Shown here: in pieces, positions 1 through 64,000 of the stretch | How positions within the stretch are numbered: the stretch's first letter is position 1 | Layout of the letters: each line of letters opens with the position of its first letter | NCBI GenBank assembly: GCA_945898275.1 | Contig: CAMDHZ010000013.1 | Span: forward strand, 6,695-70,694 | DNA: 64,000 nt | DNA from: Chitinophaga pinensis | Lineage (GTDB): Bacteria; Bacteroidota; Bacteroidia; UKL13-3 | Direction of reading: 5' to 3' | Made by a program: the position numbers and the translations under genes | Notes under the pieces: generated by a model | Seen by the model: the letters and a program-made list of their open reading frames with translations, nothing else | The model's database searches: none | What the model was told of the DNA's origin: nothing

Positions 1-1893
1 GGCATGGGCTTTGAGCGCTTATGCCGTGCCATAGAAGCCAAACAAAGTAACTATGATACAGATGTATTCGTACCTTATATTAAGTTTTTAGAAGAAACTT
101 CTGGGATGGTTTATGGCAGTTCAGAAAAAACAGATATTGCCATGCGTGTGCTTGCCGACCATATTCGTACCATTACTTTTGCTATATTAGATGGACAATT
201 GCCTTCCAACAATGGCGCAGGTTATGTGATTAGAAGGATTTTACGCAGGGCAGTTAGGTATTATTATAGTTTCTTAAACCGCCGCGAGCCGCTCTTGCAT
301 TACATGGTAGCTTTGGTAGGAAATGCTTTCGCTGATATTTTCCCTGAAGTAAAAGAGAAAAAATCTTTCATCGAAACCGTAATCAAAGAAGAAGAATTGG
401 CTTTCTTGAGAACCTTAGAAAATGGTATAAAAAGAATAGAAAGACATGCTGGTGATATCAATGGTGAAGTAGCGTTTGAGTTATTTGACACCTTTGGATT
501 TCCAATAGATTTAACACAATTGATTGCCAGAGAGCAAGGTTTTACTGTTGACTTAACAGGCTTTGAAAGGAACTTGCAATTGCAAAAAGAACGCTCTAGA
601 AAGGCCACTACACTCGAAACAGAAGATTGGGTAGTAATAGAAGAAAATGATCAACTTAAATTTATCGGCTATGATTTTTTAAAAGCAGATGTTCGCATCA
701 TGCGTTACCGCAAGGTAAAAGCAAAAGGCAAAGAACAGTATCAATTAGTGTTGAACCAAACACCGTTTTATGCAGAGAGTGGTGGGCAAGTTGGAGATTC
801 AGGTGTTTTAGAAAGCATCAATGAAAAGATAGAAATATTAGACACACAAAAGGAGAACAACCTAATTGTTCATATTGCGGCAAGGTTGCCAGAAAATCCT
901 GTTGCTGTTTTTATAGCAAAGGTTAACGCAACTAAACGCCAACTCACTAGTTCCAATCACTCGGCAACACATTTGTTGCATGCCGCTTTAAGGGAAGTTT
1001 TAGGCACCCATGTAGAGCAAAAAGGTTCATTGGTAAACAGTGAGTATTTGCGTTTCGACTTCTCACATTTTAAAGCTATGAGTGAAGCAGAATTGGAGCA
1101 AGTAAGCAAGCGTGTAAATGAAAAAATAAGAGAGAACATTGTCTTAGATGAACTCAGAGATGTGCCAATTGAAGAAGCAAAATCCCTTGGCGCCATGGCT
1201 TTATTTGGTGAAAAATATGGCGATAAAGTTCGCGTAATTACATTTGACCCAAGCTACAGTATAGAACTTTGCGGAGGTACGCATGTGCAAGCTACTGGTC
1301 AAATTGGAATGTTTAGCTTTAGTGCAGAATCTGCTGTAGCAGCTGGAGTAAGGCGCATTGAAGCCATCACTTCTGTAGCTGCAGAAAATCAAAGTAAGGA
1401 AGAAAAGCAGGTGCTTGCAGAACTTAAAGACTTGCTAAAAAGCAAAGACTTGAAAAAATCTGTGGAAGCCTTGATGGCGGAAAAGGCTGAATTGCAAAAG
1501 AAATTGGAACATTTAGAATCAGAAAAAACACAAGCCTTAAAGCATTTGCTAAAAGCCAAAGTTGAGAAAGTTGGAGATATTCATTTGCTAATTGAAGCGG
1601 TTGAAATTCCAAATGCAGAGCAGTTAAAGAACTTATCATTTCAATTGCGCCAAGAAATTCCAAACTTGGTTTGTATTTTAGGTTGCGGTTTGAACCAAAA
1701 GCCTTTATTAAGTATTATTTTAGCAGATGAGTTGGTTCAAACCAAACAATTGAATGCCGGAAATTTGGTAAAGCAATTGGCTAAGCACATACAAGGTGGG
1801 GGAGGCGGTCAGCCATTTTATGCCACAGCAGGCGGTAACAAGATGGAAGGCTTGGCTGCAGCGTTAACTGAGGCAAGAGAAATGTTTAAATAG
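1..1893 (+). CDS. alaS: Alanine--tRNA ligase, 5' part outside the window
   Basis: GMGFERL, ADHIRT, QTPFYAESGGQVGD, HSATHLLH, RFDFSH, ELCGGTHV and C-terminal GGGGGQP (DHHA1) motifs; frame is open from base 1. Confidence 0.98.
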   Translation, partial: GMGFERLCRAIEAKQSNYDTDVFVPYIKFLEETSGMVYGSSEKTDIAMRVLADHIRTITFAILDGQLPSNNGAGYVIRRILRRAVRYYYSFLNRREPLLHYMVALVGNAFADIFPEVKEKKSFIETVIKEEELAFLRTLENGIKRIERHAGDINGEVAFELFDTFGFPIDLTQLIAREQGFTVDLTGFERNLQLQKERSRKATTLETEDWVVIEENDQLKFIGYDFLKADVRIMRYRKVKAKGKEQYQLVLNQTPFYAESGGQVGDSGVLESINEKIEILDTQKENNLIVHIAARLPENPVAVFIAKVNATKRQLTSSNHSATHLLHAALREVLGTHVEQKGSLVNSEYLRFDFSHFKAMSEAELEQVSKRVNEKIRENIVLDELRDVPIEEAKSLGAMALFGEKYGDKVRVITFDPSYSIELCGGTHVQATGQIGMFSFSAESAVAAGVRRIEAITSVAAENQSKEEKQVLAELKDLLKSKDLKKSVEALMAEKAELQKKLEHLESEKTQALKHLLKAKVEKVGDIHLLIEAVEIPNAEQLKNLSFQLRQEIPNLVCILGCGLNQKPLLSIILADELVQTKQLNAGNLVKQLAKHIQGGGGGQPFYATAGGNKMEGLAAALTEAREMFK

Positions 1894-1991
1894 TTTTGAA
1901 TGAAGTTACCTTTTGAAATGGAACGAAATCCTAGACATACTTAACTGAGTTAAAATCAGAAATTATGTTTTTCAAAATTGTTAATACCAAA

Positions 1992-2669
1992 ATGGCTAGA
2001 AAGATTTTAATAACAGGTTCAAAAGGGCAAATAGGAAGTGTGCTTTTGGGCGGGTTGAGAAATTATATTTTGGTAGAAGCAGATTTGCCTGAGACGGATG
2101 TAAGAGATTATGCCACCTTATTGAAAAAATGCAAAGGAATAGACGCAATTATTCATTTGGCATGGGATACCAATGAAAATCATAGAAGCAAGACATACAA
2201 TCCAGATAATTCACTTATGTTTTTAAATGTTTATAAGGCCTCTCTTGAGCTTGGAATTAAAAGGGTAATTATGGCTTCGTCAGTTCATGCAGATGAGTAC
2301 GTGGCAAATTCAACTGCTAGGCTATATGTTAATCAAAATCCTAAACCTAATAGTCCATATGGCGCCCACAAAATTTTCATGGAAAAGATGGGATACTGGT
2401 ATTCTCAGCAAGGATTAGAAATTATATGCATTAGGTTTGGGGGTGTTTGTGGGCTAAATAGAAAACCATGGAATTCACTCAAAATTGAAGGTCTGGCTCA
2501 TGCAGATTGCCTAGATTTGATTGAGAAATGTTTGTCAATTAAGACAGTGCCACAGAACTATATGGTATTGTATGGCGTATCCAACAATAAATTAGGCGTT
2601 CATGATTTTTCCAATCCATTAGGTTGGAAACCAATATTAGATGCAGCAGAATTTTATAATTGGGGTTGA
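1992..2669 (+). CDS. NAD-dependent epimerase/dehydrogenase (extended SDR, uronate dehydrogenase-like)
   Basis: ILITGSKGQIG Rossmann motif, IIHLAW, MASS, PYGAHK (YxxxK); start taken at MARK (1992), ORF track starts at 1965. Confidence 0.85.
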   Translation: MARKILITGSKGQIGSVLLGGLRNYILVEADLPETDVRDYATLLKKCKGIDAIIHLAWDTNENHRSKTYNPDNSLMFLNVYKASLELGIKRVIMASSVHADEYVANSTARLYVNQNPKPNSPYGAHKIFMEKMGYWYSQQGLEIICIRFGGVCGLNRKPWNSLKIEGLAHADCLDLIEKCLSIKTVPQNYMVLYGVSNNKLGVHDFSNPLGWKPILDAAEFYNWG

Positions 2670-2873: not shown

Positions 2874-2891
2874 TATTGTAATATTGCAATA
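2874..2891. promoter_or_regulatory. Putative ArsR operator
   Basis: TATTGTAATATTGCAATA, an 18-bp palindrome with one imperfect pair, 13 bp upstream of the arsR ATG; ArsR repressors autoregulate through such sites. Confidence 0.6.
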
Positions 2892-7789: not shown

Positions 7790-8215
7790 TTTACTAGCGA
7801 TTATGATTGTTTAAATACTACACTGCAAAATAGTAAAAAAAAAATAAAACGGAATTAAATGAAATTATAATTCGTTTATTTTTATTGCTTGGTACCTATT
7901 TTAGCAATAATAATGGTTATTTTCAACTGTCAATGTTTCTTTTAAATTCTATATAAAAATCATTTGTTCTAATTTACAGTAAATCCAAAATCAGTAATTT
8001 TGGTATTAAACTAAACTGATTAAAAGTGAGAACTCTTTAAAGTTCAGATTTAGGTCTTTCTATATTTTCAAGCAATTAATCAATTCATAATCTTCATACA
8101 AAATTATTTTGGGATGCTTCCGTTAAAGTAAGAAATATTTGCTTTATCCAAATTTTGTTTTAATCAACTAGCTTTATGATTTACTTTGGTTCAAACCTTA
8201 AGAAAAATATTAACC

Positions 8216-11122: not shown

Positions 11123-11150
11123 TTTATAAAATTTGGTTCAAACCGAAACT

Positions 11151-11196: not shown

Positions 11197-13149
11197 TTAA
11201 GGTTTAACAGTTGTTTCCTTGGTAATCTTTACAGGGCCAATCTGAGTTTCTTCAACTCTTACTTCCTTGCCATTTTTAATTTTGGTGGTAATTTTTTTCG
11301 ACTTTCCTTCCTTTCCTTTTTCTACTTTGATGCTCATTTTATCTCCATCTTTGCTTTCAATTTTGATATCAACATCTTTTAAATCATCTTCTTCTTCACC
11401 AATAGAATCTTCTTGGATAATAATTTCTTCCTCATCATAAATACAATCTTGGCAAACAAGGCCACTATTGGTAATTTTATAATAATGACCATCTGCTTCA
11501 TCCATGTTGTTTTCATTTAAATTCTCCTTAGAAGCATCATCTAAATAAACAATTGTTCCAACAGGTAAAACTAGAATTACATCCACCTCTTGCCAGCTAA
11601 ATTGTTTTGATTTATTGATATTAAAGTAACTTGGAATATGTAGTTTATTTCCTTCAATAATTATGTCATAACTAATCATCTCAATTTTAGATAAGGCATC
11701 TTCCTTATCGCTGCCGTTACCCCTTTTGATAATCTTAATATAAGCGCTGTCATTCTTGCTCGGCTTTATGGTAATGTCATCAATTTCAAAATGCACCACC
11801 TCTTTGCCAATAACGAGGCCTTTATCATAGAAAACCAATTCACCTTCATTTTCTATGGCCACCATTTCATCCTCTTTCATTTCAATGCCATGAATAAATA
11901 AAGTATCACTTTTTGCAAGTCTTGTAATGCTAGATTTATTCTCAGAATGATGAATGGATGTTCCAAAATTTACACCAGCATACACCAAGCACCCTATGCC
12001 TATTAAGAAAAATCCAAGTAAAGAGAAGAACCAAGCATTGTTAGCAAAAGATAGTTTAAACAAACCTTTTATAACCACCATTAACAAGGCAATTAAAGGA
12101 GTGATTAGAATTAAGAAAACACCTGCTTTTGCTGTGAAAATGATAGTAGGATTATTAATGGTAAAGTTAATCAGTTCGTTGAGTTGAGCCGTGTTTCCTA
12201 GGTTAAAAAATACCGAAACCATGGCAATACTTAAAGCAATAACTAAGATGAAAAGTATCAAGGCAGCAAAAGAACCCACCAACTTAATGATTCCTTTGAG
12301 TATAATACCTATTAAATGTGTGCAATGTTGCGCAATGCTATTTGTCCTTGTTCCGGTGTTGTTTTCTAATACTTGTTGTTGAATGCTGTGTATGTCTACA
12401 GCCCTTCCTTTCATCATCAATTTATCTGAGGCGCTAATGGCTTTCGGAACGATAATCCAAAGTATGATGTATAACCAAAAGCCAGTACCAAAAACAAATA
12501 AGGCGATTACAAACGCAATTCTTATCCAAGTAACTTCAATAGCAAAATAATTTGCGAGTCCAGAAGATACACCACCTACTACTCTAGAATCATTGTCTCT
12601 AAAGAGCTTTTTAGATTTCTTTTCTTTTTGCATGCGCATGGCAAATGCATCTTCTCCTTTGGCCAATGGAACGGCAATCCATAAAATCACGTACAATAAG
12701 ATTCCTCCTCCAAAAGCCACTAATAGAACCACAAAAAGTACACGAATCAAAACTGGGTCAACATCAAAAAAGTTTGCAAGTCCAGAACATACGCCACCCA
12801 AAGATTGGTCATAAGGGTCTCTTCTCAATTTCTTTTCATGGGTTGAACCTATCGAAGCTGATGGATTTTCGGCTTGTGCTGTTTTGGTTGCACCATGTTC
12901 ATCCATTTGGTTTACATTACCCAAAGTAGTAATAACAGCGGCTATATCTTCGGTAAATAGGGTTGTTCGGTTTGAACCTAATCTGTCGTTAAGCAATTCA
13001 GACATGCGAGATTCAATGTCTTGTACCACATCAGAATTGCTTGCAAAATGCCTTCGCAAACTTTCTATGTACGACTTTAACTTTTCATAAGCTTGCTCTT
13101 CAATGGTGAATACAGAACCCGCCAAGTGAATTTGAAATACTTTATCCAT
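11197..13149 (-). CDS. PspC domain-containing membrane protein (two PspC domains)
   Basis: LRRDPYDQSLGGVCSGLA and LFRDNDSRVVGGVSSGLA repeats, N-terminal IESRMSELL, TM block, C-terminal periplasmic region. Confidence 0.88.
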   Translation of the reverse strand: MDKVFQIHLAGSVFTIEEQAYEKLKSYIESLRRHFASNSDVVQDIESRMSELLNDRLGSNRTTLFTEDIAAVITTLGNVNQMDEHGATKTAQAENPSASIGSTHEKKLRRDPYDQSLGGVCSGLANFFDVDPVLIRVLFVVLLVAFGGGILLYVILWIAVPLAKGEDAFAMRMQKEKKSKKLFRDNDSRVVGGVSSGLANYFAIEVTWIRIAFVIALFVFGTGFWLYIILWIIVPKAISASDKLMMKGRAVDIHSIQQQVLENNTGTRTNSIAQHCTHLIGIILKGIIKLVGSFAALILFILVIALSIAMVSVFFNLGNTAQLNELINFTINNPTIIFTAKAGVFLILITPLIALLMVVIKGLFKLSFANNAWFFSLLGFFLIGIGCLVYAGVNFGTSIHHSENKSSITRLAKSDTLFIHGIEMKEDEMVAIENEGELVFYDKGLVIGKEVVHFEIDDITIKPSKNDSAYIKIIKRGNGSDKEDALSKIEMISYDIIIEGNKLHIPSYFNINKSKQFSWQEVDVILVLPVGTIVYLDDASKENLNENNMDEADGHYYKITNSGLVCQDCIYDEEEIIIQEDSIGEEEDDLKDVDIKIESKDGDKMSIKVEKGKEGKSKKITTKIKNGKEVRVEETQIGPVKITKETTVKP

Positions 13150-18291: not shown

Positions 18292-21200
18292 TTATTCTAT
18301 AATTATTTTTCGCGTAGTACTTTCTTCGCCTCTGCTAATTTTAACTATGTAAACGCCAGCTTTTAAACCTGTTGTTTTTAGTTCAAATCCTTGACTGTTT
18401 TCAATAGTTTCTATGTTTTCGGTTTGACCCAAAATATTAATCAAAGTAATTCTGGCATGTTCTAAATTGTTGCCAGTAATGAATAGTTTTTCTTTTGCAG
18501 GATTTGGATACACCAAAACTTCATTGTCTAAACTTTTATCCTCATTACTCAAAGCCCAATTAGTCGTAAAACTATACTCAAATCCACCGCCAAAATCGGG
18601 TTGAAAAGTTTTGAAAATTTGTCCATTTGCACGCTTTAGCCTTACAAAACCTGTTCCTTGCGCACTATTGGCCCACCATTGCACACCATCCTGACCTTTA
18701 TCTTCTACCACCAATTTAAAACAACCACCTAGGTTATAAGCTTTGCTAAAGGTGAAGTTGGCTTGGGTAAAGCTTTGTTGGTCTATTAAATTGCCTCTCA
18801 TGTCATACAATTTATAGTTGTTTTCTGCAGGGTTGTTGTTAGTTCTAAATTCTAGCGTAAATACAGAAGGTGCTATTTCGGGTATGCTAAATAAAGTAGT
18901 TTTCTCATTATTGTAAGGATTATCGTCTCCATTTTCTGATCCATTTACACCCTCAATTGTTAATTTAAGTTTATTTGCATTAACACCTGGCATTGAATTT
19001 TCCCAAAAAGTATTTAGGTTAAGGGACAATTCTACAGTATCAAAGCCCATAGGAGGAATTGTTCTATCCATCCAAAAAGTGTTTGACCCTACTTCATCAT
19101 TTATTCTATACCAAAATAAGATATCAGTTATATCTTGCGACCCTACATTTTGCACAACTACTCTTGGGGTTGTGCAGGCTGGGTTAAGCCTGCTGTGTAC
19201 TACATAGTTCGATGGATTAATGATATCTACAATTCTGGCATCTCTTTTAAAATTAAAATCGCCATAAGTAACCAATTGATGGGCTACATGGTAATTATAT
19301 GAACCACTTGGGTTTGGCGGAGTGCTTGCTTCGTAGTCAACTGTTATTGGGCTTCCTGCGCTTACCATGCTGCTGATAGCAAATTCTTTAGTCAATGATT
19401 TTTGTCCAGGGCACCAGCCTTGTCTATCGTAAACCCAAGTACCACCTTGCGGAAATACAGGGTTAAAGGCGCATTCTTCGCTGATTATCCATGAAAACTC
19501 ATTGGCACCACCATTTAAATTTAATTGGTGTGTAACTTGTCCGCCATTGGCTTCAAACTCTCCTTCAGCTCCATGCCCAGTAATGGTAGAGCGAATTTTA
19601 AATTCTTTTCCTGTTGCCAAAGTTGGCACATTTACAGGTGCAAATCTGCTATTATTATTTATGGCTGTCAATGGTGCTTGGCCTGTTCTATTTGTACCTT
19701 GCCAAATTTGCTCAAAGCTTAAAACATTTTTTGGTGGTGTGCCCACTATAAACCAAAACTCAACATCGTTTTGTTCTTGGTTTTGGCCTCCTAAAGTCAT
19801 TAGAATTCTTTTGTTACCTTTTAAAATGGGTGCAAAATCCGTAACGTCAAAATACCAAGTTTTACCAGTGGCTCCTAGGTTCAAACCGATGCCATACGGC
19901 GTTACAAACGACATAATCTCATTATACCAAGGAAACCTTCTAAAGAAATTAAGATTACTTAAGGTTAAACTTGCTTCTACATTCACAGCAATACTATCTA
20001 TAATTGGCAATGAACTACTATCTCCATTGTAAACATAACTATGGTTGGCATTGAACCAATTGCTTTGGGTGCTCACTAAGTTTATTTGATCATTGCTTAT
20101 AGGAAATTGCCCTTGTTTGGAAGTAATTGAATACTCTTCAACTACATTGGTTTTTCTAAGTATAGAATCGCGTAAAACAATATTTTGAATCGTGCTAGTT
20201 TGACTTGCTCTATTGAAAATCACATTGGGTCTTAAATCTACCTGACTAAATCCAAACCGAATTTGCTCACCTCTTTCATAAGACCATTTTAAGTTAGTGC
20301 CAGATACAGTTTTGTTATGAATTACTTCGGTAATGCTTTGCCCACCGGCTTCTCCCATTGGATAATAGGCAACTACATCTCCAGCAAGAGGTACCATATA
20401 TCCATTTATACCTGCAGTAATATTGCCAATTTGTGAGTCGGGCAGGGCTTTGTTCCAAATAAGGAGCTCACTGATACGGCCTTTATAATTATTATTTAAA
20501 TTTTGATCCTTGCCTAAAATTAGGTTCATCAAATTAATGGCTTTTGTTTTTGCAGTACCCGACATCCAAAGGCTTCCGTTTAAAAATACTTTCATGGTGC
20601 CGCTTGAGGCATTTTTAACAAACACCCAATGGTTCCAGCGGCCACCCATTTCGGCTAAGCTTGCTGCTTTTTCGATGCGGTCATATCCTCCTGCAAATCC
20701 ACAATCATAATAAACACTGCCATTAGAAAAAGGCAGGTGGATATTCAATTGGCGGTTGTTGATATTGTTATCATAACCATACAAAATTGAAGTGCTTATG
20801 GGCATTTGTGCAGCGTTGCCAAATGCCCAAAACGAAATGCTTATTTCATTTTTTATCTTTGAAAAATCTGCAGTATCTAATTTTACATGTCCGCTATGCG
20901 AAAGGTCTAAAGCATAATTATTAAGCGCTGTAATGCCAGAAATGGCATCGGTTGCCGAGGATGCAAGCTGTAAAATACTATCTTTAATTGAATTGGTAAA
21001 AGAAAATTCAACCACAATATTTTGAACCCCGTCCCAAATAAAAGGCCTATGAAAATTCAATCGGTTCAAACCGAAACCAAACTGATGATTGCTGAAAAAC
21101 ACCTCAGTAAAATTACCTTGCTCTGAGGAAATGGTTTGAAAATCATTTTTAGTAGTATGTTTTATTTTAACTTTTAAGAATGAGGCTTTTGCGCCATTAT

Positions 21201-24270: not shown

Positions 24271-25244
24271 GTAACCAACAATGGGAGGCCTACAGCCAAG
24301 GCATGCTTAGCAAATCACAGCTAGACTTGCTAAACGCGCATGTGCAATCCTGTGAAATTTGTGCTGATATGAAAGCTGGTATTGATGCCATGCAACATCC
24401 TGAAAATTTAGTGAAGCATGTTGCTGCTATCGATAAAAAAATAGCACAAAAAACGCAAAAGCCTTATGCTAAAATCATTGCTATAACTGCCTTTGTAGCT
24501 ATTGCCGCCACCTTGCTAATCTTTGGAAATGCTTTTTTATTAATGGAAGCAGAGGATGCCGAAATACATCCAATTCTAACTGAAAAAATTACAGATGCAA
24601 ACGACTCGGTTCAAGCCGAAACCAAAAAGATATTGGCTTTAGAAGTGCCTGCCAAAAAGAAAAAAGCAGTAACAAAGCCTTTTAATCCTAGTCTGGATGC
24701 AGCCATAAAAGTGCAAGAAACACTTCCGGAAAAAATGATGGTTCAATCAGATGATGCTTCAAGTGTGGCAGAGGACTTAGTCCCGCCTGAAATAGCGCCA
24801 GTTAAGGCATTAGAGCAGGAAACAACAGACAATGTTATTGAAGAAAGTTGGAAGCCCGAAACAAAAAAGGATGCCCAAAAGGCTATGCCCACAAGTAAAA
24901 AGCAGAAAGCTCGTGTGGCTGGTCCGCAAACCTTGAGTAATAACAATGCCTATAACAATAATGCTATTTCATTTGAACTCCCCACTGATTCTGCGCGGAT
25001 TGCCGTATCCAAGCAGTTATTGGGCAGAAAAGAATATCAATTGGGCCTTAATTATTTATTGGGAGTAAGAAACGATAGCACTTCTGCCTTTTACCACGAA
25101 GCTTTGTACCTTAGTGCACAATTTTATATCGGGTTGAACCAAACCCATTTTGCAAAAGGTTTGTTGCAGGAGATTTTGAAATCAGAAAACGACTTTACCC
25201 TTAAGGCAGAAGCGCTTTTGAGAAAACTAAACGAAGAAGATTAA
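24249..25244 (+). CDS. Putative zinc-binding anti-sigma factor, single TM
   Basis: HVQSCEIC (HxxxCxxC), TM helix, C-terminal TPR-like helices; overlaps the sigma gene. Confidence 0.72.
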   Translation: MDATKCISNQQWEAYSQGMLSKSQLDLLNAHVQSCEICADMKAGIDAMQHPENLVKHVAAIDKKIAQKTQKPYAKIIAITAFVAIAATLLIFGNAFLLMEAEDAEIHPILTEKITDANDSVQAETKKILALEVPAKKKKAVTKPFNPSLDAAIKVQETLPEKMMVQSDDASSVAEDLVPPEIAPVKALEQETTDNVIEESWKPETKKDAQKAMPTSKKQKARVAGPQTLSNNNAYNNNAISFELPTDSARIAVSKQLLGRKEYQLGLNYLLGVRNDSTSAFYHEALYLSAQFYIGLNQTHFAKGLLQEILKSENDFTLKAEALLRKLNEED

Positions 25245-48858: not shown

Positions 48859-49628
48859 CTTAATTTTTCTTTGTTTAGAAAGGCATTAATCCCTTTTTTA
48901 CAATCGTCACTTGCACGTGTTTTTGCATTCATTTCTGCTGCATAATTAATAGCTTGTTCTAAGCTAAGTTCTGGAACCTTAGCCAACATTGTTTTAGTGG
49001 CAGAAATAGATTGGCTAGAGGTTTGTTTAGTCAATTTTACTGCAAACTCATGCACTGTTTCCTCTAGTATTGGAGATTCTACTACATAATTTATAAGTCC
49101 TAATTCTTTGGCCTGATTGGCCTCTAATATTTCACCACTCAGTAAAATTTGTCTAGCTTTTCTTTCACCAACTTGTCTCAATAAAAACACTAGTACAATT
49201 GCGGGAATAAAACCTATTTTAACTTCGGTATAGGCAAATTTTGCATGCGACTCAGCAAAGCAAAAATCACAAATGGTAGCCAAGCCGCAACCTCCAGCAA
49301 ACGCAGCGCCATGCACCATGCTTATAACAACTTTAGGGAAATGGTAAATCATCAAAAATAGTTCGGCTAAATGTTTACTGTCGGCCAAGTTTTCTTCAAA
49401 GGTATTGGTTTGAAGACTTTGCAAAGAGGCTAAATCCGCTCCTGAACAAAAAGCTTCACCACTTCCCTTTAAGATAACTACCTTACAATTTGAATCGTTA
49501 GTGGCTTGTGAAAGGTTTTCTTTAATAGCTGACACAAATTCAAAACTCAATGCATTTCTTTTTTCTGGTCTATTTAACGTGAGATAGGCCACTCTGTCGC
49601 GGACTTCATAGGTTACCAATGCTTCCAT
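48852..49628 (-). CDS. Enoyl-CoA hydratase/isomerase (methylglutaconyl-CoA hydratase-like)
   Basis: LNRPEKRNAL, AFCSGADL, GAAFAGGCGLA, TEVKIGFIPA. Confidence 0.92.
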   Translation of the reverse strand: MEALVTYEVRDRVAYLTLNRPEKRNALSFEFVSAIKENLSQATNDSNCKVVILKGSGEAFCSGADLASLQSLQTNTFEENLADSKHLAELFLMIYHFPKVVISMVHGAAFAGGCGLATICDFCFAESHAKFAYTEVKIGFIPAIVLVFLLRQVGERKARQILLSGEILEANQAKELGLINYVVESPILEETVHEFAVKLTKQTSSQSISATKTMLAKVPELSLEQAINYAAEMNAKTRASDDCKKGINAFLNKEKLSW

Positions 49629-51682
49629 GTTGTTTCTTTTATTATAAATGCTCCTTGGCTTGCAATATCATGACAAGCTAGCTTACTTTTTCCACAAAGT
49701 TTTTGAACAGCCTCTCGCTGGTAGGATGAAAGTCCTTGCAGCAAAATAATTTGTTTGACCCCAAGCTCCTTAATCAGGCTATCTGTCATCAATTGTGTTT
49801 TTCCACCTACAATCAAAATATCAACTTTAGATGGCCATTTCACTAGTTTCTTGTTTACCAAAAGTAGGCTTAATTCATTTGGCATTTGAATCATAAAACT
49901 TCCACTATCCAAATAATTGGTTGCTGTTAAGTTTATATCTTCCTTAACAAAATGCTGCTGTACGATTCGCTTTGTTTTAGAACTGTCAGCGCTGCTCCAA
50001 GCCCATCCTTTTGCGTTTTCTGTATAGCTAATCAATGTCTTTTTTGGTAAAGCATATATTGTTATGGCTGCCTCTTTATTTTTGAGTATTTGGCTCGTTA
50101 GGTTCAAACCGAAACCTAAAAGCAAACTTGCTAAAACTAATTTCATGTAATAAGCCGATTTGAAATATAAAAATGCACTCATAAGTATGACAATTGAATA
50201 GGCAAAAATGGCGTAGGTGTGAGGAAAGTAAATTTGTTCAATTGCCGAAAAGGGTAGATTTGATAGGTAAACTACCAAGAAATTTGTAAGCATTATCATT
50301 TTTGAAATAAGCCAAGCTAAACCGCTGGCTAGAAGACTAATCTTATGCACCACTAATAAAAGAATACCAAGATAAATTAGCAAAGTGGTAAGTGGAATAA
50401 GTAGCAGATTGGCGATTAAAAAGTAGTTAGGGAATTGGTGAAAATAGAACAAACTAATAGGGAAGGTTAGCAGTTGTGCCGCCAATGAAACCGCAATTAC
50501 TTTATAGATTTCATTAAAAAATTTATTGCCAATATAAACTGCTTGATAAAGCGGAGGGTAAAAACAGATAATACCTAGTACAGCGGTGTAACTTAACTGG
50601 AACCCAGCATGCCAAAGCATTTGCGGCTGCCAACATAAAAGGAAAAAGCATGAAGCAGCTAAGCTGTTGAAAGGATTTCCGCTTCTATGAATAATTTTAC
50701 CAATTACCATAAAACTAAACATGATGGCCGCCCTTAAAATACTTGGAGACATTCCACATAATAGTGCATAAGCCCAGATACCAATTAACAGAAAGTAGGG
50801 TTCTAATAATCGGCCCCATTTTTTTCTTTTAATGGGTTTAAAAATTGCTCCAAGAATGATAAAAATTAGACCTACGTGCATGCCACTCACGGCAAGCACA
50901 TGTAAAGTTCCTGTTCGGCTGTAGGCTTGTATGAGTTCGTCAGGAATATGATCGTCTAAGCCAAATAACAAGGCTTCTGATATGCCAATTTCTGCATCGG
51001 AGTTAAGGTAATTAGCAAGAATAGCGCTTATCGCGCTTTGCCATTCGTCAACCTTGGTTTGAAGAGTGAAAGACGGTGTAGAGGTATACAATTTCCATTC
51101 GGGATGAAACATGAATTGCTGGTGAAATACTCCCTTTCTGGCCATAAAAGATTTGTAGTTAAACTCACCTGGATTTTTTGGAAAAGAAATTTCTTGAAAG
51201 TTAGATTTTATTAATATTTGGTCGCCAAGTTTGAGTTTTTTGGAAAGACTGTCTAAAGGCAAGTTCAATTGAAGTTTTCCTTTTAATGGAATTAGAAGGT
51301 CATTGTTTGTTTGTCCAGCAATAACAAGTGTTTCAAAGGATATTCTTTTGTTTAATGCTTTTGGTTTTGTTTCGGTTTGAACCAAAAGCCAGTCTGTTTT
51401 TTGCGCCGAGAAATGATTTTGCAGCTTTGATTGTTTATCGGAAGAAATGAGGCATAAACCAATCAAAAAACAAAGCAAAGTATGTATAATTCCATGACTT
51501 GGTTCAAACCGAAAACTCTTTATAAAACGGAAAATACAAAAGTTGAAGATGGCAGTAAACGCCAATAAAATAAAGAGCAGAGGAGGATTTAATTGAAATG
51601 AATCTCCAACAATAATTCCAAATACCAATGGAATTAGTAAACGTACAAAAGGCATTTGTTGCCAAAAAGTGGCTATCATCAT
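49613..51682 (-). CDS. comEC: ComEC/Rec2 competence protein
   Basis: PKNPGEFNY (DUF4131), GTLHVLAVSGMHVG, SPSILRA, GFQLSY, HQFP.YFLIANL. Confidence 0.92.
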   Translation of the reverse strand: MMIATFWQQMPFVRLLIPLVFGIIVGDSFQLNPPLLFILLAFTAIFNFCIFRFIKSFRFEPSHGIIHTLLCFLIGLCLISSDKQSKLQNHFSAQKTDWLLVQTETKPKALNKRISFETLVIAGQTNNDLLIPLKGKLQLNLPLDSLSKKLKLGDQILIKSNFQEISFPKNPGEFNYKSFMARKGVFHQQFMFHPEWKLYTSTPSFTLQTKVDEWQSAISAILANYLNSDAEIGISEALLFGLDDHIPDELIQAYSRTGTLHVLAVSGMHVGLIFIILGAIFKPIKRKKWGRLLEPYFLLIGIWAYALLCGMSPSILRAAIMFSFMVIGKIIHRSGNPFNSLAASCFFLLCWQPQMLWHAGFQLSYTAVLGIICFYPPLYQAVYIGNKFFNEIYKVIAVSLAAQLLTFPISLFYFHQFPNYFLIANLLLIPLTTLLIYLGILLLVVHKISLLASGLAWLISKMIMLTNFLVVYLSNLPFSAIEQIYFPHTYAIFAYSIVILMSAFLYFKSAYYMKLVLASLLLGFGLNLTSQILKNKEAAITIYALPKKTLISYTENAKGWAWSSADSSKTKRIVQQHFVKEDINLTATNYLDSGSFMIQMPNELSLLLVNKKLVKWPSKVDILIVGGKTQLMTDSLIKELGVKQIILLQGLSSYQREAVQKLCGKSKLACHDIASQGAFIIKETTWKHW

Positions 51683-53803: not shown

Positions 53804-55048
53804 TTGACATTCGACGATTTTTACTTAGATAACCAATTAATGGATGGCCTTGATGCCATGGGTTTTCTAACACCAACCCCCATTCAAGAAAGAGCGATTC
53901 CACTTATATTAGACCATTACGATTTAATTGCCTGTGCCCAAACTGGGACAGGAAAAACAGCAGCCTACCTTTTGCCGATAATTGATAAAATTATCAACTC
54001 AAACCATAGCCATTTAAACACTTTGATATTGGTGCCAACTCGCGAATTGGCGCAGCAAATAGACCAACAATTGGTGGGCTTTGGGTATTATGTGGCCATT
54101 AGTTCAATTGCAGTTTATGGAGGTGGTGACGGAAACTTGTTTAGTCAACAACAAGTGGCCTTAAGAGAAGGGGCAGATATTATTATTGCAACACCAGGAA
54201 GATTATTATCACACTTGGCTTCTGGTTCTATTGATTTTGGTAAATTGGAGCACCTTGTGTTGGACGAAGCTGATAGAATGTTGGACATGGGTTTTTATGA
54301 TGACATTATCAAGATCATAAGTTATTTGCCTAAGGAGCGCCAAACACTATTGTTCTCTGCAACCATGCCGCCTCGCATTAAAACTTTGGCAGCTAAGATT
54401 CTGTTTGAACCAAAAGAAGTAAGCATCTCCATTTCTAAGCCAGCAGAAGGCATAAAGCAATTGGCTTATGTAACTTATGAACCTCAGAAAATGGGTTTGT
54501 TAGGCGAGATTTTCAAAGAAAAATTCCAAAGTGTAATTGTATTTGCTTCAACCAAAGAAAAGGTAAAAGGGTTACATTTTGAGTTCAAGAAAATTGGTAT
54601 TCCTGCAAAATCGTTTCATTCAGATTTAGAGCAAAGAGAAAGAGAAGAGTTGCTCAATGATTTCCGAAATAGAAAAATACAGGTTTTGATTGGAACCGAT
54701 ATTTTATCTCGGGGAATTGATGTGGATGGCATTGACTTGGTAATAAACTTTGATGTGCCACCAGATCCAGAGGATTATGTGCACAGAATTGGTAGAACTG
54801 CAAGGGCAGCAACTACAGGAACTGCAATTACCTTTATCAACGAGAAAGACATGCGCAGGTTTCATGCCATAGAAAAGCTAATAGAAAAAGAAGTTCCAAA
54901 ATTACCCTTGCCAGAAAGCTTAGGAACTGGTCCGGTTTATGAGCCCTTAAAAAAGGTTTCTTCTGGTTTGAACCGAAATAGGCCTTCAGGAAATGGAAAG
55001 TCGAAAGGCCAGTGGCGCGGCGGACCTCCTAGAAAAGCTACAAAGTAA
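53804..55048 (+). CDS. DEAD-box RNA helicase (TTG start)
   Basis: PTPIQ, AQTGTGKT, PTRELA, TPGRL, DEAD, SAT, RGID, HRIGRTAR. Confidence 0.97.
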   Translation: MTFDDFYLDNQLMDGLDAMGFLTPTPIQERAIPLILDHYDLIACAQTGTGKTAAYLLPIIDKIINSNHSHLNTLILVPTRELAQQIDQQLVGFGYYVAISSIAVYGGGDGNLFSQQQVALREGADIIIATPGRLLSHLASGSIDFGKLEHLVLDEADRMLDMGFYDDIIKIISYLPKERQTLLFSATMPPRIKTLAAKILFEPKEVSISISKPAEGIKQLAYVTYEPQKMGLLGEIFKEKFQSVIVFASTKEKVKGLHFEFKKIGIPAKSFHSDLEQREREELLNDFRNRKIQVLIGTDILSRGIDVDGIDLVINFDVPPDPEDYVHRIGRTARAATTGTAITFINEKDMRRFHAIEKLIEKEVPKLPLPESLGTGPVYEPLKKVSSGLNRNRPSGNGKSKGQWRGGPPRKATK

Positions 55049-58051: not shown

Positions 58052-59632
58052 ATGAAGAATTTATTCTTAACATTTGCATTGATGGCTGTTTGCCTGTTTT
58101 CACTTGCATTTCCAGCCAAAGAAGCTAGTATAAATGTGCTTTCTTATGATATTTCGCTAACCGTAAATCCAAGCACTAAACTAATTTCCGGTGCTAACAA
58201 TATTAGCTTCTTAGTTTTAAAACCTGGCGATATTTGCGTTTTCAAGTTGGCTCCAAACCTTAAACTCATAAGCATTGACAATAATATTTCTTTCCAAAGA
58301 ATTCAGGAACGTATCCTTGTTAATCTCCCTCAAAATGTTTCTAAAGGTGACACCTTAAGCTTTAAGTTTGTTTATGAAGGCACGCCACAAGTAGCAAAAA
58401 ATGCACCTTGGGATGGCGGATTTGTTTGGCAACAAGACAGTTCTGGTAATCCTTGGGTTGGTATGGCTTGTGAAGGCATTGGTGCACATAGCTGGCTCCC
58501 CTGCAAAGACACCTGGGATGATGAACCCTCTAGTGTAACTTTAAGGTTGACAGTGCCTAAAGGTTTAATCGGGGTGAGTAATGGGCGATTGGTTCAAACC
58601 GAACAAAAAGAAAATACAAGTACTTTTACCTGGCAAACCAACAACCCTATAAACCATTATAACATAGCCATAAATGTTGGGAAATATGCACTTATCAAGG
58701 ATTTTTATATCAACGAAAAAGGGGATACACTATCCCTTGATTTTTATGTTTTAAAGGATAATTATAGTAAAGCCAAAACACATTTTCAACAGTCGAAGCG
58801 CATGCTAAAGGCCTTTGAACATTTCTTTGGAAAGTATCCATTTTACGAAGATGGTTACAAATTGGTTGAAACGCCTTATTGGGGAATGGAGCATCAAAGT
58901 TGTGTGGCTTATGGAAACAATTATGAGAACAATAGCTTTGGTTTCGACTTTATCATCATACACGAAAGCGGCCATGAATGGTTTGCCAATAGTATAACAG
59001 CACAAGACAAGGCAGATATGTGGCTACATGAGAGCTTTACAACGTATAGCGAGTCACTATTTGTGGAATATTATTTTGGAAAATCACGCGCCATTCAATA
59101 TCTGCTAAATCAAAAGGCAAAAATTAAAAATGAATTACCAATGATTGGCAAATATGGCACCCACCATCAGTTTACCGACAATGATATTTATTATAAAGGG
59201 GCTTGGATGCTTCATACTTTGCGAGGGATGATAGATAATGATACGCTTTGGTTTAATACTTTACGTGACCTAAATAAGAAGTACTATCATCAAATAATCA
59301 CAACCAAGGAGGTAGAGCAGTTTTTAAGCGAGCGAACTCGTATGAAATTGGCCCCATTTTTTGAGCAATACTTGCGCACATCTAACTTGCCAGTTTTAGA
59401 ATATTACATAACCAAGAAAAATGAATTAAACGAGTTACATTACCGTTTACAATCCTCGGTAAAGGGTTTAGAAATGCCAATATTGGTAACCCTTGCCAAA
59501 GATAAATTTGATTTTATCACAGCAGGTGACAATTGGAAAATCATTGATTTACCTTATGAAGATGTTTCTAATTTTAGAGCAGAGGAGAGCAAATTCTTGG
59601 TTCAAACCAAACTGATAAGCCCTAAAAAATAA
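58052..59632 (+). CDS. M1 family metallopeptidase
   Basis: APWDGG, GMEHQ, IIHESGHEWF, MWLHESFTTY, YYKGAW; signal peptide. Confidence 0.92.
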   Translation: MKNLFLTFALMAVCLFSLAFPAKEASINVLSYDISLTVNPSTKLISGANNISFLVLKPGDICVFKLAPNLKLISIDNNISFQRIQERILVNLPQNVSKGDTLSFKFVYEGTPQVAKNAPWDGGFVWQQDSSGNPWVGMACEGIGAHSWLPCKDTWDDEPSSVTLRLTVPKGLIGVSNGRLVQTEQKENTSTFTWQTNNPINHYNIAINVGKYALIKDFYINEKGDTLSLDFYVLKDNYSKAKTHFQQSKRMLKAFEHFFGKYPFYEDGYKLVETPYWGMEHQSCVAYGNNYENNSFGFDFIIIHESGHEWFANSITAQDKADMWLHESFTTYSESLFVEYYFGKSRAIQYLLNQKAKIKNELPMIGKYGTHHQFTDNDIYYKGAWMLHTLRGMIDNDTLWFNTLRDLNKKYYHQIITTKEVEQFLSERTRMKLAPFFEQYLRTSNLPVLEYYITKKNELNELHYRLQSSVKGLEMPILVTLAKDKFDFITAGDNWKIIDLPYEDVSNFRAEESKFLVQTKLISPKK

Positions 59633-60635
59633 GTTTATCTCTGGTTTGTCCGTAGCTTACATCAATAACTGCTGGCTCTAAGAAAAAGTCATGTGGGAAG
59701 CCTAATTCGATTGAAGACACCTCATTGAGTTTTTGAATCCATTTTTCAGGAATAATAACTTCAACACCAGCCAAGGCTTCTTCTATTTGTGCAGCTTTTG
59801 TAGCACCAATAATTGGAATTACTTGTTGATTGCGTTGTCTTGTCCATTGAATAGCAACTTGAGAAGGTGCACAACCCATTTCATTGGCAGCATCTACAAC
59901 AGTTTGTGCAATGACGGTATTTCTTTCATTGAGTCTTTTAGAAGCATCTGGAAGCCTTCCTTTTTCGCCACGTAAATACTTGCCAGTTAAAGCGCCACCA
60001 GCCAAAGGTGCCCAAGGAGTAACCGATAAATTTAGGGCTTTTGCCATAGGTAAAAGGTCTCTTTCAGCAGTTCTGTTGATTAGGCTGTATTCCACTTGAA
60101 GTCCGGCAAACTTATGCCAGCCGCGCAGTTCTGCAATAGTATTGGCTTGTGCCACACGCCAAGCGGGTGTATCGCTAATCCCAATATAATTTACCATACC
60201 ACGGTGAATAAGGTCGTTTAAACCCATTAAAATTTCATCTGGAGAAGTAGTAAAGTCCCAGATATGAAGCCAAAGTAAATCTATGTAATCTGTTTGAAGG
60301 CGTTTTAAACTTTCATGCACAGAGCGCATCATGTTTTTGCGATGATTGCCGCTAAAATTTGGGTCGCCATTGCGGTCTTTTAAACCATATTTGGTAGCCA
60401 CTACAAAGTGGTCTCGGTCTGAACCAACAAATTTTCCAACAAATTTTTCGGAAGTGCCTGATGTGTAAATATTGGCAGTGTCTATGAAGTTACCTCCAGC
60501 GTTGGCAAAGGTTTCAAAAACTGCTTTTGAGTTTTCTTCAGTAGCGCCCCAGCCATTTTCTGTGCCAAATCCCATGGTGCCCAAACATAGTTCTGAAACA
60601 CGTAAACCTGTGTTTCCAAATAAATGATACTTCAT
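59622..60635 (-). CDS. Aldo/keto reductase
   Basis: VSELCLGTM, FIDTANIY, ATKY, LQTDYIDLLWLH, QVEYSL, PWAPLAGG. Confidence 0.95.
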   Translation of the reverse strand: MKYHLFGNTGLRVSELCLGTMGFGTENGWGATEENSKAVFETFANAGGNFIDTANIYTSGTSEKFVGKFVGSDRDHFVVATKYGLKDRNGDPNFSGNHRKNMMRSVHESLKRLQTDYIDLLWLHIWDFTTSPDEILMGLNDLIHRGMVNYIGISDTPAWRVAQANTIAELRGWHKFAGLQVEYSLINRTAERDLLPMAKALNLSVTPWAPLAGGALTGKYLRGEKGRLPDASKRLNERNTVIAQTVVDAANEMGCAPSQVAIQWTRQRNQQVIPIIGATKAAQIEEALAGVEVIIPEKWIQKLNEVSSIELGFPHDFFLEPAVIDVSYGQTRDKLIF

Positions 60636-60730: not shown

Positions 60731-62206
60731 ATGCAAGTACTCACCAATACCCAAATTGCTGCTTGGGATAAATATACCATTTCTCAAGAGCCAATTGCTG
60801 ATATAGATTTAATGGAAAGGGCTTCGCTAACTTTTGTTGAGGCCTTTGTGGCCCTCATTCAACAGCAAGATTTTTTGAGTCCTAGCATTTCTATTTATTG
60901 CGGCCAAGGCAACAATGGGGGAGATGGTCTTGCCATTGCGCGCTTGTTATTTGAAAAGGGTTATGAGGCTCGCGTTATAATATTAGCGATCAAACCAAAG
61001 GGTACCGAATCTTTCGAAATAAATCTAGATAGGGTCAAACAACTTAATATTTCTATTAATTACCTAAAAGCGTCAAACGATTTAGAAAGTTTAACATCTT
61101 CTGATATCATCATCGATGCAATGATAGGCATAGGAATAGATAAGCATTTGCAAGGCTTACCTTTTGAGGTGGTGCAATTTCTTAACCAACAGGTAGCATT
61201 TAAAGTGGCAGTTGATTTGCCTACCCCAAATTTGCTGGTGCATTATACCTTTACGTTTCAAGTGTTAAAAAAGAGTTTTCTATTTCAAGAAACTGGAGCA
61301 AATGCTGGCAAAATAAAGGTGTTGCCCATTGGTTTGCATCTAACATATTTAACTACTTTGCCTTGTGGAAATAGTTTTTTCAATAGTTTTTCTGCTAACA
61401 ACTTTCCAATCAATAGCCAATTTAACATGAAATGGGAAAAGGGACATGCCTTATTAGTGGGCGGTTCGTATGGAATGATTGGTGCTATTATTCTTTCAAG
61501 CAAGGCCGCTCTCAGTGCGTTTTGCGGCATGGTGAGTGTATATGTTCCAAAACACGCCAATTCAATTGTTCAAACAGCCTTTCCGGAGGCTTTGGTTCAA
61601 ACCGACACAGAAGAAAATTTTATAAGTACTATTCCTATTCCTGAAAACTGCAATGCTATTGGCATTGGACCAGGTTTAGGTAGGGCGGAAGAAACGCAAA
61701 ATGCTTTAATTGATTTTTTAAAACGTTGCGAAAAACCTTTGGTAATTGATGCAGATGCCTTGAATCTATTAGCTAATATTTTTAGGTTTGAACCAAACTT
61801 TATTCTGCCTAAATCTTGCATTCTAACACCTCATGCTAAAGAGTTTGACAGGTTATTTGGAAAATCTGAAAACTCCGAAGCACGTTTACAGAAGCAAAGA
61901 GATTTCAGTAAAAAATTAGAAGTGATTATAGTTTTAAAAGGTGCTAATACCTCCATTACAGATACCGAAGGAAATTGTTGGTTCAACACAAATGGGCATC
62001 CTTTACTTGCTACTGCCGGCAGTGGTGATGTGCTAACAGGTATTATAACTTCTTTGCTTGCAAAAGGAGAAACACCCATAATGGCAGCTAGGAAAGGTGT
62101 TTATATACATGCGCAAGCCGCGCAGCAGTTGGCTTTAAAAGGTTATAAACAAATTTTGGCTAGTCATCTAATTAATGAGCTGCCAATGCTTGAGCGGATT
62201 CACTAA
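60731..62206 (+). CDS. nnr: Bifunctional NAD(P)H-hydrate epimerase/dehydratase
   Basis: LMERA, CGQGNNGGDG, IDAMIGIG; GIGPGLG, VIDADAL, LTPHAKEF, LATAGSGDVLTG. Confidence 0.92.
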   Translation: MQVLTNTQIAAWDKYTISQEPIADIDLMERASLTFVEAFVALIQQQDFLSPSISIYCGQGNNGGDGLAIARLLFEKGYEARVIILAIKPKGTESFEINLDRVKQLNISINYLKASNDLESLTSSDIIIDAMIGIGIDKHLQGLPFEVVQFLNQQVAFKVAVDLPTPNLLVHYTFTFQVLKKSFLFQETGANAGKIKVLPIGLHLTYLTTLPCGNSFFNSFSANNFPINSQFNMKWEKGHALLVGGSYGMIGAIILSSKAALSAFCGMVSVYVPKHANSIVQTAFPEALVQTDTEENFISTIPIPENCNAIGIGPGLGRAEETQNALIDFLKRCEKPLVIDADALNLLANIFRFEPNFILPKSCILTPHAKEFDRLFGKSENSEARLQKQRDFSKKLEVIIVLKGANTSITDTEGNCWFNTNGHPLLATAGSGDVLTGIITSLLAKGETPIMAARKGVYIHAQAAQQLALKGYKQILASHLINELPMLERIH

Positions 62207-63179: not shown

Positions 63180-63248
63180 TTGTGCAATTTAAAAACTAGT
63201 TTTGAATTATTGGTACTTTTTAGAAAAATAGTACAAATCTGTTACAGT

Positions 63249-64000
63249 CTAGTTCCTTTTTATTCTGTCAATACTCACTTCTCTTGGGATTGTCAAATTA
63301 TTTTCGATGTGGTTAAAAAGGGTTTTCGCCAGCCATGGTCCGCGCACCACACCCTTTGTTCCTAAGCCATTTAAAACATACGTCCGCTCAAATTCTTTTA
63401 TTTTCCCAATCACTGGATTTCTATCTTTTGTGGTTGGTCTAATGCCTGCCTCTTGGGTCAAAACGTAAAAAGGCAAATGAATTAAAGCTTTAATTTTTTC
63501 CAACATTTCTTGTTTCCCAAGTTCATTAGGGATTTCATTTACTTCGTCCCATTCATAGGTTGCGCCAGCCCTAAACTGATTTTCGCCAATTGGAACCAAG
63601 TAAATTCCTTTTTTTACAATTCTATCCTCGGCTAACCCTTCACAATGGATGGTGAGCACTTGTCCTTTGCATAGCTTAAATGGCAAAGCATCTTTCAAGT
63701 AAGGATTTTCTAAGGCCCCAATTCCTTCAGCAAATACTACCGTTGAATATAATTGGTTTTGGTAATTCCAGCCGTTTTCGGTTTGAACCAAAAGTGAATA
63801 ATCAAAGGTCTTGTTTTCGAAGCTGTGCCTGTTTGTTAGATATTCGGTGTAAGTTTTAATAAATAATTTTGTATTGAGCCAACCTCCTTTAAGCATCTCA
63901 AAACTGCCATAGGGTGCAATAATATTTTCAGAGCCATTTCTAATTTCAGAAAGGTGTTCATTTAAAGTTTCATTTTTATTTCTGCACGCATAATCATTGG
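63249..64000 (-). CDS. FAD-dependent oxidoreductase (DAO/MnmC-like), 5' part outside the window
   Basis: KGQVL, GATYEW, AGIRPT.KDR.P.IG, NGLGTKG; frame stays open to the window end. Confidence 0.88.
   Translation of the reverse strand, partial: NDYACRNKNETLNEHLSEIRNGSENIIAPYGSFEMLKGGWLNTKLFIKTYTEYLTNRHSFENKTFDYSLLVQTENGWNYQNQLYSTVVFAEGIGALENPYLKDALPFKLCKGQVLTIHCEGLAEDRIVKKGIYLVPIGENQFRAGATYEWDEVNEIPNELGKQEMLEKIKALIHLPFYVLTQEAGIRPTTKDRNPVIGKIKEFERTYVLNGLGTKGVVRGPWLAKTLFNHIENNLTIPREVSIDRIKRN

Follow-up and report, generated by a model that had tools for sequence, protein, structure and literature searches.

A hyper-abundant directional DNA word in an uncultured freshwater Bacteroidota clade, with a possible role as a DNA-uptake-type signal

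What keeps a ten-base word recurring about once every 3.4 kb on both strands of a bacterial genome? The question is raised by a 64,000-nt stretch of Chitinophaga pinensis DNA (contig CAMDHZ010000013.1 of assembly GCA_945898275.1, positions 6,695 to 70,694 of the forward strand; hereinafter the window), in which GGTTCAAACC occurs 19 times, 12 on the forward and seven on the reverse strand. A first-pass annotation had already reported this count with its positions, all of which hold on recount, and had put the zero-order expectation at about 0.1 copies, which we recompute as 0.08; dinucleotide-preserving shuffles yield a mean of 0.11 copies and never more than one. Its assignment of the DNA to the Bacteroidota is likewise borne out by the type IX secretion domains (Por_Secre_tail, PorP/SprF and CHU_C) encoded in the window. 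As developed below, we view the word as a 'self' signature that operates at the level of DNA, has a direction and marks a clade of uncultured freshwater Bacteroidota; its strongly constrained 5′ core is T-T-G-G-T-T-C, which in this genus is extended to T-N-GGTTCAAACC-G-A-A followed by an A/T-rich tail. From this sequence analysis we tentatively propose, as something possible rather than probable, that it might be a DNA-uptake-type signal spread by transformation-linked drive.

The conserved word extends beyond its ten central bases. In motif orientation, position −2 is T in all 19 window copies and position +2 is A in 16, as first described, with T at −1 in 13, G at +1 in 13 and A at +3 in 16, after which comes an A/C-rich tail. 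The resulting word T-N-GGTTCAAACC-GA (12–17 bases) lies about 170-fold above chance; its commonest form among the window copies is TTGGTTCAAACCGA, sub-words of which also head a de novo ranking of the 7- and 8-mers of the window. Near-copies with one mismatch number 23 (about 20 had been estimated, and all eight positions given as examples are among them) and those with two mismatches 89, which gives an exact to one-mismatch ratio of 19:23 as compared to about 1:33 by chance. Seventeen of the copies are genic and two are intergenic (8188 and 11135), as fits a non-coding fraction of about 6%. Of the 17 genic copies, ten are in the terminal 15% of the gene concerned (P=0.013).

Could such an excess be a by-product without any function at the level of DNA? 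It might stem from the use of codons or dipeptides, from a protein motif that recurs, from remnants of a miniature inverted-repeat transposable element (MITE), a repetitive extragenic palindrome (REP) or a tRNA, or even from an assembly artefact. The first-pass annotation had pointed to higher-order Markov and codon-preserving nulls as the appropriate check, and the excess survives Markov models up to order 4 as well as both codon shuffles. Analytical Markov models of orders 1–4 predict 0.14–0.41 copies (orders 5–8 come near the observed number only through training on sub-words of the motif itself and were discarded as circular), a synonymous-codon shuffle of 45 open reading frames over 500 runs yields a mean of 1.1 copies and a maximum of four, and a whole-codon shuffle of the same frames yields 0.13, against 18 observed. 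The tenfold gap between the two codon-based nulls indicates that peptides compatible with the motif are over-represented in the encoded proteins as well. Three frames are used on either strand of the gene, namely xTG GTT CAA ACC (LVQT), GGT TTG AAC C (GLN) and xGG TTT GAA CC (RFEP), and in a pooled clade set of 370 kb with 108 exact copies 41 are sense and 44 antisense relative to their genes. The use of both gene orientations and of three frames, along with residues unlike those of relatives and the turnover of copies by point mutation (both detailed below), establishes that the signal acts on DNA and not on protein. Codon usage and a recurrent protein motif are thus ruled out by the two shuffles and by the multi-frame, two-strand use of the word, which stands in intergenic DNA too.

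Repeat families and RNA elements fare no better. In flank alignments and a repeat search the similarity between copies fades after 17–25 nt, and the arms of GGTTCAAACC, as read off the sequence, are 2 nt apart, which is too short for a hairpin loop; a MITE, REP or longer repeat is rejected on these grounds and because 89% of the copies are genic. The window does carry a gene resembling REP-associated tyrosine transposases (RAYT) along with REP-like hairpins, which might be taken to favor such an origin, but these hairpins are unrelated in sequence to GGTTCAAACC and were rejected as its source. Similarly, there is a likeness, short of one base, between GGTTCAAACC and the T-arm and loop of tRNA (GGTTCAAATCC / GGTTCGAATCC), but ARAGORN finds no tRNA gene and Rfam gives no match in the window; together with the neutral 41:44 orientation, this disposes of a T-arm origin or an RNA motif. 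An assembly artefact is at odds with the presence of the word in many independent assemblies from different studies. Accordingly, we regard a functionless by-product as hardly credible.

As to the internal symmetry of the word, the initial description, that of an interrupted palindrome with a fixed asymmetric CA core, stands only in part. The centre is indeed fixed: within GGTTNNAACC, the window shows CA 19 times, TA once and no other dinucleotide, and the corresponding palindrome with a CG centre, GGTTCGAACC, is absent as against 19 copies of GGTTCAAACC. In contrast, the palindromic symmetry does not hold up, for the one-mismatch copies in the pooled 370 kb are almost invariant at T-2, G1, G2, T4 and C5, while they vary at A6, A7, A8, C9 and C10. 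This one-sided constraint implies that the element is directional rather than a symmetric palindrome. Even after removal of the full copies, TTGGTTC occurs 25 times in the window as compared to 12.2 ± 3.2 under synonymous shuffling, and it does so in all frames. In every related lineage it ranks first or close to first among the over-represented words, at 0.3–1.5/kb, and it is 4–10-fold enriched across the freshwater clade. This enrichment is absent from outgroup Bacteroidota, which, like Ignavibacteria and Firmicutes, show 0.1–0.35/kb. Second, independent regions of two relatives (L279 and L280; such handles denote individual lineages or loci) both show 0.68/kb, and the Flavobacteriales outgroup L281 shows 0.09/kb.

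What follows this core varies with lineage, so as to form dialects. The 3′ extension is AAACC in the window, L274–L276 and L279; AGACC or AGCC in L011 and L280; and GAACC, which gives the palindrome, or GGC in L004/L018 and L007–L010. The top 8-mers also differ by lineage (TTGGTTCA-AACC, TGGTTCAG, TTGGTTCG and GTTCGAAC), with the 10–44 kb available per relative making the dialect logos coarse. As a separate observation, GGTTCAAACC is a single transition (CpG to CpA/TpG) from the palindrome GGTTCGAACC of L004, L018, L007–L009, L003 and L275, and the CpG ratio of the window is 0.62.

Hyper-abundant oligomers fall into three classes, Chi, uptake signals and the highly iterated palindromes (HIP) (PMC4390886), and the palindromic dialects bring the last of these into consideration. 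Under a HIP-like explanation the word, ancestrally the palindrome TTGGTTCGAACCAA, would be recognized on the resident chromosome by an orphan DNA methyltransferase or by some factor involved in repair or recombination, and would be kept by selection or biased repair, as has been proposed for HIP1 (GCGATCGC). Such a target would account for the quasi-palindromic shape, for the over-representation of palindromic GTTCGAAC in relatives (14 versus 0.7 expected in L004/5/6/18 and 8 versus 0.6 in L007-10) and for the swapping of CA and CG centres at orthologous sites; like HIP1, a recognized over-represented oligomer class (PMC4390886), the word is non-polar, common in coding DNA and kept at orthologous sites. 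A 2024 preprint further ties HIP1 to transformation efficiency. However, a palindrome is precisely what this genus lacks, with no CG centre to set against its 19 CA centres, and the constraint is asymmetric, a rigid 5′ half standing beside a loose 3′ half. Moreover, the word changes from one related lineage to the next, unlike HIP1, which is the same throughout the cyanobacteria (PMC4390886), and there is no DNA methyltransferase gene in the window, where the only methyltransferase domains are of the small-molecule type (5868–6533), with an MnmC-like one in the extension of the contig. On balance we rate a HIP-like role as unlikely, though deserving of serious attention.

Asymmetry, taken together with a density of about one copy per 3.4 kb, like that of Chi in E. 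coli, and with a suggested enrichment in core over inserted DNA, could also point to a polar signal, namely a Chi-like hotspot read by AddAB/RecBCD or a guide read by FtsK in the manner of the FtsK-orienting polar sequences (KOPS). Orientation, in which the first-pass annotation had expected a Chi- or KOPS-like role to show as strong replichore polarity, argues otherwise. TTGGTTC is split 20:21 between the strands in the window and is balanced in all 15 loci examined; a Chi-like skew of 75% is rejected for it (P=9e-4), and the full motif stands at 12:7. In addition, the three shortest gaps between copies all belong to inverted pairs inside genes: 1687/1734 in alaS (47 nt), 51374/51501 in comEC (127 nt) and 61594/61785 in nnr (191 nt), of which two are divergent and that in nnr convergent, the clustering itself being marginal (P ~0.08). 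The lack of polarity thus excludes Chi and KOPS for practical purposes, and we hold a function of this kind to be very improbable.

The word is by no means confined to the window, and its first interpretation as a genome-wide signal comparable to those of Neisseria, Pasteurellaceae or cyanobacteria is supported both by its survival under the nulls and by its occurrence in sister genomes, metagenomic contigs and other loci of relatives. Relatives recovered among GTDB genomes by means of AlaRS are all uncultured, metagenome-assembled genomes (MAGs) from ponds and lakes. The closest of these, represented by 22 kb each, carry five copies (L002, 92–94% nucleotide identity) and three copies (L003, ~80%). 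The window itself belongs to a 90-kb contig of an ENA metagenome assembly, and 6.6 kb of it beyond the window hold one further copy. Loci found via ComEC homologues carry two, three and four copies in 10.6, 22 and 15.4 kb, respectively. A metagenome scan with the 18-mer TTTGGTTCAAACCGAAAC retrieved 73 contigs, of which 44 with a GC content below 0.40 amount to 215 kb, none overlapping the window. Beyond the seeds, these 44 contigs contain 28 core copies, i.e., 0.13/kb as compared to about 0.002/kb by chance, with T(-2) in 28/28, T(-1) in 19/28, G(+1) in 20/28 and A(+2) in 19/28. The non-seed copies confirm the abundance and the flanks of the word free of ascertainment.

Comparison of orthologous sites reveals how copies come and go. 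Two copies lie in alaS: one at 1684..1698 (−; core 1687-1696), antisense and read as C-G-L-N-Q, and one at 1732..1746 (+; core 1734-1743), sense and read as E-L-V-Q-T-K. Sites 1687, 1734 and 8188 are identical in L002, while in L003 two sites are identical, including 1687, and two differ by one mismatch (GGTTCGAACC and GGaTCAAACC). In a codon alignment of 20 genomes, the relatives show ELV[KATNE][SKEQ]K at the second alaS site, most commonly ELV[K/A/T]SK, against ELVQTK in the window lineage; L011 also encodes ELVQTK but writes it with its own dialect, TTGGTTCAGACC. At the first site most relatives have CELN, and CGLN is found only in the window, L002 and L003. Thus, the window lineage encodes different residues at both motif sites, the direction of change being inferred from the majority state of the relatives.

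The comEC gene (49613..51682, −; DUF4131 plus Competence domains), which encodes the DNA-import channel and is conserved in relatives, carries three exact copies. These are an antisense G-L-N copy at 50099..50113 (+; core 50101-50110), exact in L275 and with one mismatch in L274; a sense L-V-Q-T copy at 51371..51385 (−; core 51374-51383); and an antisense R-F-E-P copy at 51499..51513 (+; core 51501-51510), whose core is exact in L274 and L276 and replaced by GGTTCGAACC in L275. Around the second, both L274 and L275 preserve a 22-nt sequence, TGGCTTTTGGTTCAAACCGAAA, unchanged, despite ComEC amino-acid identities of only 67% and 54%, respectively. Across L003, L274 and L275, 7/15 window sites are retained exactly as compared to 1.41 predicted from background 10-mers of the same genes (P=1.9e-4), and most of those that are not retained are one transition away, often with the centre changed from CA to CG. 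L276 keeps just 1/6 window sites and yet has four copies of its own. Retention, one-mismatch orthologues and the independent copies of L276 together indicate that point mutation creates the copies, that a perfect copy tends to be kept, and that separate lineages accumulate copies independently.

Retention of this kind could equally be expected of binding sites for an abundant chromosomal protein, be it nucleoid-associated, condensin-loading or otherwise chromosome-structuring, with a preference that evolved within the clade and sites selected in cis. The dispersed, non-polar distribution would suit such a protein, as would the separate enrichment of TTGGTTC (25 versus 12.2), which resembles a half-site. 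Against it, the sites of known nucleoid proteins are degenerate, and these proteins are not known to impose an exact 12-mer on coding sequence; the ratio of exact to one-mismatch copies is far sharper than in typical site families, and intergenic DNA shows no enrichment (2/19 copies in ~6% of the sequence). Furthermore, sites such as parS, matS, NBS and SBS number in the tens per genome and not around a thousand. A structural binding site therefore appears to us quite improbable.

Foreign DNA offers a further point of comparison. The epimerase gene directly adjoins the gene for the M28 peptidase or a DUF1223 protein in L275, L276, L279 and L280, where the segment 31781..46224 (−), which in the window bears a PorP/SprF gene and the gene for a 4456-aa PKD/CHU_C adhesin, is absent. 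This lineage-specific 14.4-kb insertion contains one exact copy, at 33898..33912 (+; core 33900-33909), against 5.3 expected (Poisson P=0.031, binomial P=0.048). A scan of viral contigs with the 14-mer gives, among the matches listed, single, chance-level hits and no multi-copy phage of this lineage, a result that does not bear on depletion in phages.

Set beside known systems, the word comes closest to uptake signals while departing from each of them. Like the DNA uptake sequence (DUS) of Neisseriaceae (AT-GCCGTCTGAA), it is a non-palindromic word of 10–12 nt that exceeds expectation by orders of magnitude, stands in either orientation and shows no replichore polarity; both have a rigid sub-core with tolerant positions elsewhere and core-sharing dialects in related lineages, as well as copies that arise and decay by point substitution. 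DUS is also scarce in recently inserted DNA, as the one island suggests for the present word. It differs from DUS in a density 3–8-fold lower and in that about 90% of its copies are genic, whereas DUS favors intergenic inverted pairs acting as terminators; it also belongs to another phylum, with no type IV pilin receptor (ComP) in evidence here, and in the one dissected Bacteroidota system uptake across the outer membrane relies on proteins that have no relation to the classical machinery (PMC8459023). With the uptake signal sequence (USS) of Pasteurellaceae (AAGTGCGGT / ACAAGCGGT) it shares a mostly intragenic location in a few preferred frames whose peptides are accommodated, an A/T-rich flank after the core, at least two lineage types with a common sub-core and an exact to one-mismatch ratio near 1; its density is lower than that of USS and its shape quasi-palindromic. 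Cyanobacterial HIP1 is comparable in being hyper-abundant and non-polar in coding and non-coding DNA, and sister lineages have the palindromic GGTTCGAACC; however, HIP1 is a perfect palindrome, uniform across its phylum and overlapping the targets of orphan methyltransferases, whereas the dominant form here is asymmetric (CA, never CG, in this genus), constrained on one side and variable between lineages. Finally, Chi (GCTGGTGG) and KOPS (GGGNAGGG) are likewise short, asymmetric and over-represented, with a density in the case of Chi close to that seen here, but they are co-oriented with replication, unlike the present word in all loci examined.

We therefore favor, with due reserve, the DNA-uptake-type explanation on account of the directional constraint, the dialects, the frame-restricted intragenic build-up with altered residues, the independent gains, the A/T-rich flank and the suggestive scarcity in inserted DNA. 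Under this proposal, a surface or periplasmic component of a putative transformation apparatus would prefer double-stranded DNA bearing the word. In a lineage presumed competent, conspecific fragments might then be imported via ComEC and recombined more often than others, so that point mutations creating or perfecting the word would be over-transmitted, a molecular drive for which uptake bias is the candidate cause. The word would thereby build up wherever the protein tolerates it, i.e., in the LVQT, GLN or RFEP frames. Natural transformation does occur in the phylum: that of Riemerella anatipestifer needs ComEC, DprA, ComF and RecA along with outer-membrane, surface and helix-hairpin-helix (HhH) proteins that lie outside the classical machinery (PMC8459023); hence, any receptor here would not be expected to be a ComP-type pilin. 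A preference for self DNA is seen in both R. anatipestifer and R. columbina, and k-mer counting in these organisms gave only A-runs (PMC7965970).

Several observations weigh against an uptake signal and have to be set in the balance. The density, 0.3/kb for exact copies in the window and 0.13/kb in related contigs, is 3–8-fold below that of DUS and USS. None of the window copies form Neisseria-type inverted-repeat terminator pairs, the sole copy beside a terminator being that at 11135, which lies outside the hairpin itself. The depletion in the inserted segment is suggestive but marginal (P=0.03–0.05) and comes from one island. The presence of comEC says little, as the gene is near-universal in bacteria. 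The near-palindrome, with the perfect GGTTCGAACC in relatives, fits a dimeric DNA-binding or DNA-modifying protein as well as it does a receptor, and selection for a function in cis would explain just as well why orthologous sites persist where ComEC identity is down to 54%. Within the phylum, the one uptake system examined for a sequence preference, that of Porphyromonas gingivalis, showed none, nor any preference for source (PMC3268665). The near-palindrome, the enriched palindrome in relatives, the long orthologous retention, the lower density and the lack of terminator pairs are what keep alive a function in cis, whether HIP-like or protein-binding.

To our knowledge, firm evidence for DNA uptake guided by sequence is confined to two families of Proteobacteria, and its existence in other groups has long been debated. 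In the searchable literature we found neither this motif in a bacterial context nor any uptake sequence in Bacteroidota, the motif string surfacing only as a primer or in eukaryotic sequence, which agrees with the first-pass remark that no such motif had been described in the phylum. With somewhat more caution than for the uptake-type reading at large, we posit that this might be the first uptake-specificity signal outside the Proteobacteria, one perhaps read by the phylum's own non-classical machinery (e.g., outer-membrane or surface proteins of the Riemerella type), with the dialects restricting gene exchange among populations that share a lake or pond. The word and its dialects provide a concrete oligonucleotide for experiments and a comparative series, of dialect against candidate receptor, that could reveal the reader. 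The word also serves as a sequence tag for assigning metagenomic contigs to the clade, whose members are common in lakes and ponds, and for flagging foreign DNA in its genomes. Should it instead turn out to be HIP-like, it would represent a second, independent and evolving case of the unexplained HIP phenomenon.

The remaining copies illustrate the contexts in which the word is accommodated. Of the two intergenic copies, that at 8186..8200 (+; core 8188-8197) lies 18 nt upstream of the called start, at 8216, of a gene for a 239-aa hypothetical protein, while that at 11133..11147 (+; core 11135-11144) is directly 5′ of the terminator-like hairpin (AAAAAGGCTACC...GGTAGCCTTTTTTTT) and corresponds to GGaTCAAACC in L003. 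A copy at 12966..12980 (−; core 12969-12978) is sense in a PspC-domain gene (11197–13149, −), where it reads L-G-S-N-R and is matched by the palindromic GGTTCGAACC in L003. Antisense G-L-N copies are found twice in the gene for a 1162-aa Laminin_G_3/N-glycanase_C/Por_Secre_tail protein (19876..19890, +, core 19878-19887; and 21061..21075, +, core 21063-21072), in an M1 peptidase gene (25737–28286, +) at 27270..27284 (−; core 27273-27282; one mismatch in L275), in the M28 peptidase gene (29812–31575, −) at 31330..31344 (+; core 31332-31341; exact in L275), and near the 3′ end of a DEAD-box helicase gene at 54962..54976 (−; core 54965-54974). Sense L-V-Q-T copies occur in an M1-like peptidase gene (58016–59632), both at 58589..58603 (+; core 58591-58600), where L275 has GGTTCGAACC with a change of Q to R, and at 59597..59611 (+; core 59599-59608), 24 nt before the stop, where L275 encodes LVKI. 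Two more of these are located in the YjeF_N/Carb_kinase (nnr) gene at 61592..61606 (+; core 61594-61603) and in a DAO oxidoreductase gene at 63777..63791 (−; core 63780-63789). The nnr gene has in addition an antisense R-F-E-P copy at 61782..61796 (−; core 61785-61794), convergent with the one 191 nt upstream. Among the one-mismatch copies, full flanks accompany GGgTCAAACC at 18418..18432 (−; T-2, GAAAAC) and at 23534..23548 (+; T-2, GAAAC) as well as GGTTCAAgCC at 24606..24620 (+; T-2, GAAACCAAAAAG), and GGTTCAgACC at 60413..60427 (−) matches the dialect most often met in L011 and L280.

A few further observations concern the relatives and other contigs. The L004/L005/L006/L018 pool contains strongly over-represented 8-mers unrelated to the present word, namely CGGACAAG (10 versus 0.3 expected), GGCGGACA, GCGGACAA and TGCTCGTC, which may constitute a second repeat or signature; GACGGACA and CTTGTCCG occur in the outgroup pool too. 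Two giant-virus MAG contigs, L119 (IMG/VR GVMAG-M-3300023174-206) and L085, have two copies of TTGGTTCAAACCGA each, spaced from a few bases to 50 nt apart; these pairs probably reflect local tandem repetition and have no connection with the signal in bacteria.

Within the window, the adhesin of the insertion, a type IX-secreted protein with PKD, Ig_7 and CHU_C domains, is encoded with four tandem repeat units of 1350 bp (~36.7–42 kb) that are 79–95% identical, and the one-mismatch form cGTTCAAACC is present in each of three of these units. In the region 51741–53732 a gene for a 148-aa predicted membrane protein is divergent from comEC in 6/6 lineages (the window, L274, L275, L276, L279 and L280), a conserved pairing that may be functional; next to it, the closer lineages have genes for a regulator of the MarR-like kind and then two or three small predicted membrane proteins, with no informative family matches. 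The RAYT-like gene codes for a Y1 transposase of the IS200/RAYT-like type (28538–28999; PF01797) and comes after arrays of REP-like hairpins (28300–29000) comprising GCCCCAGCGGGGCGAAATC three times and TCCTAGCGATGAT(T/A)TCGC twice. This unit of arrays and gene resembles a REP/RAYT pair and is wholly absent from the syntenic position in L275. Lastly, an arsenic-resistance-like cluster at 2884–5119 encodes an ArsR-type helix-turn-helix regulator, a 263-aa protein weakly similar to arsenate reductases and a transporter of the SBF/ACR3 type.

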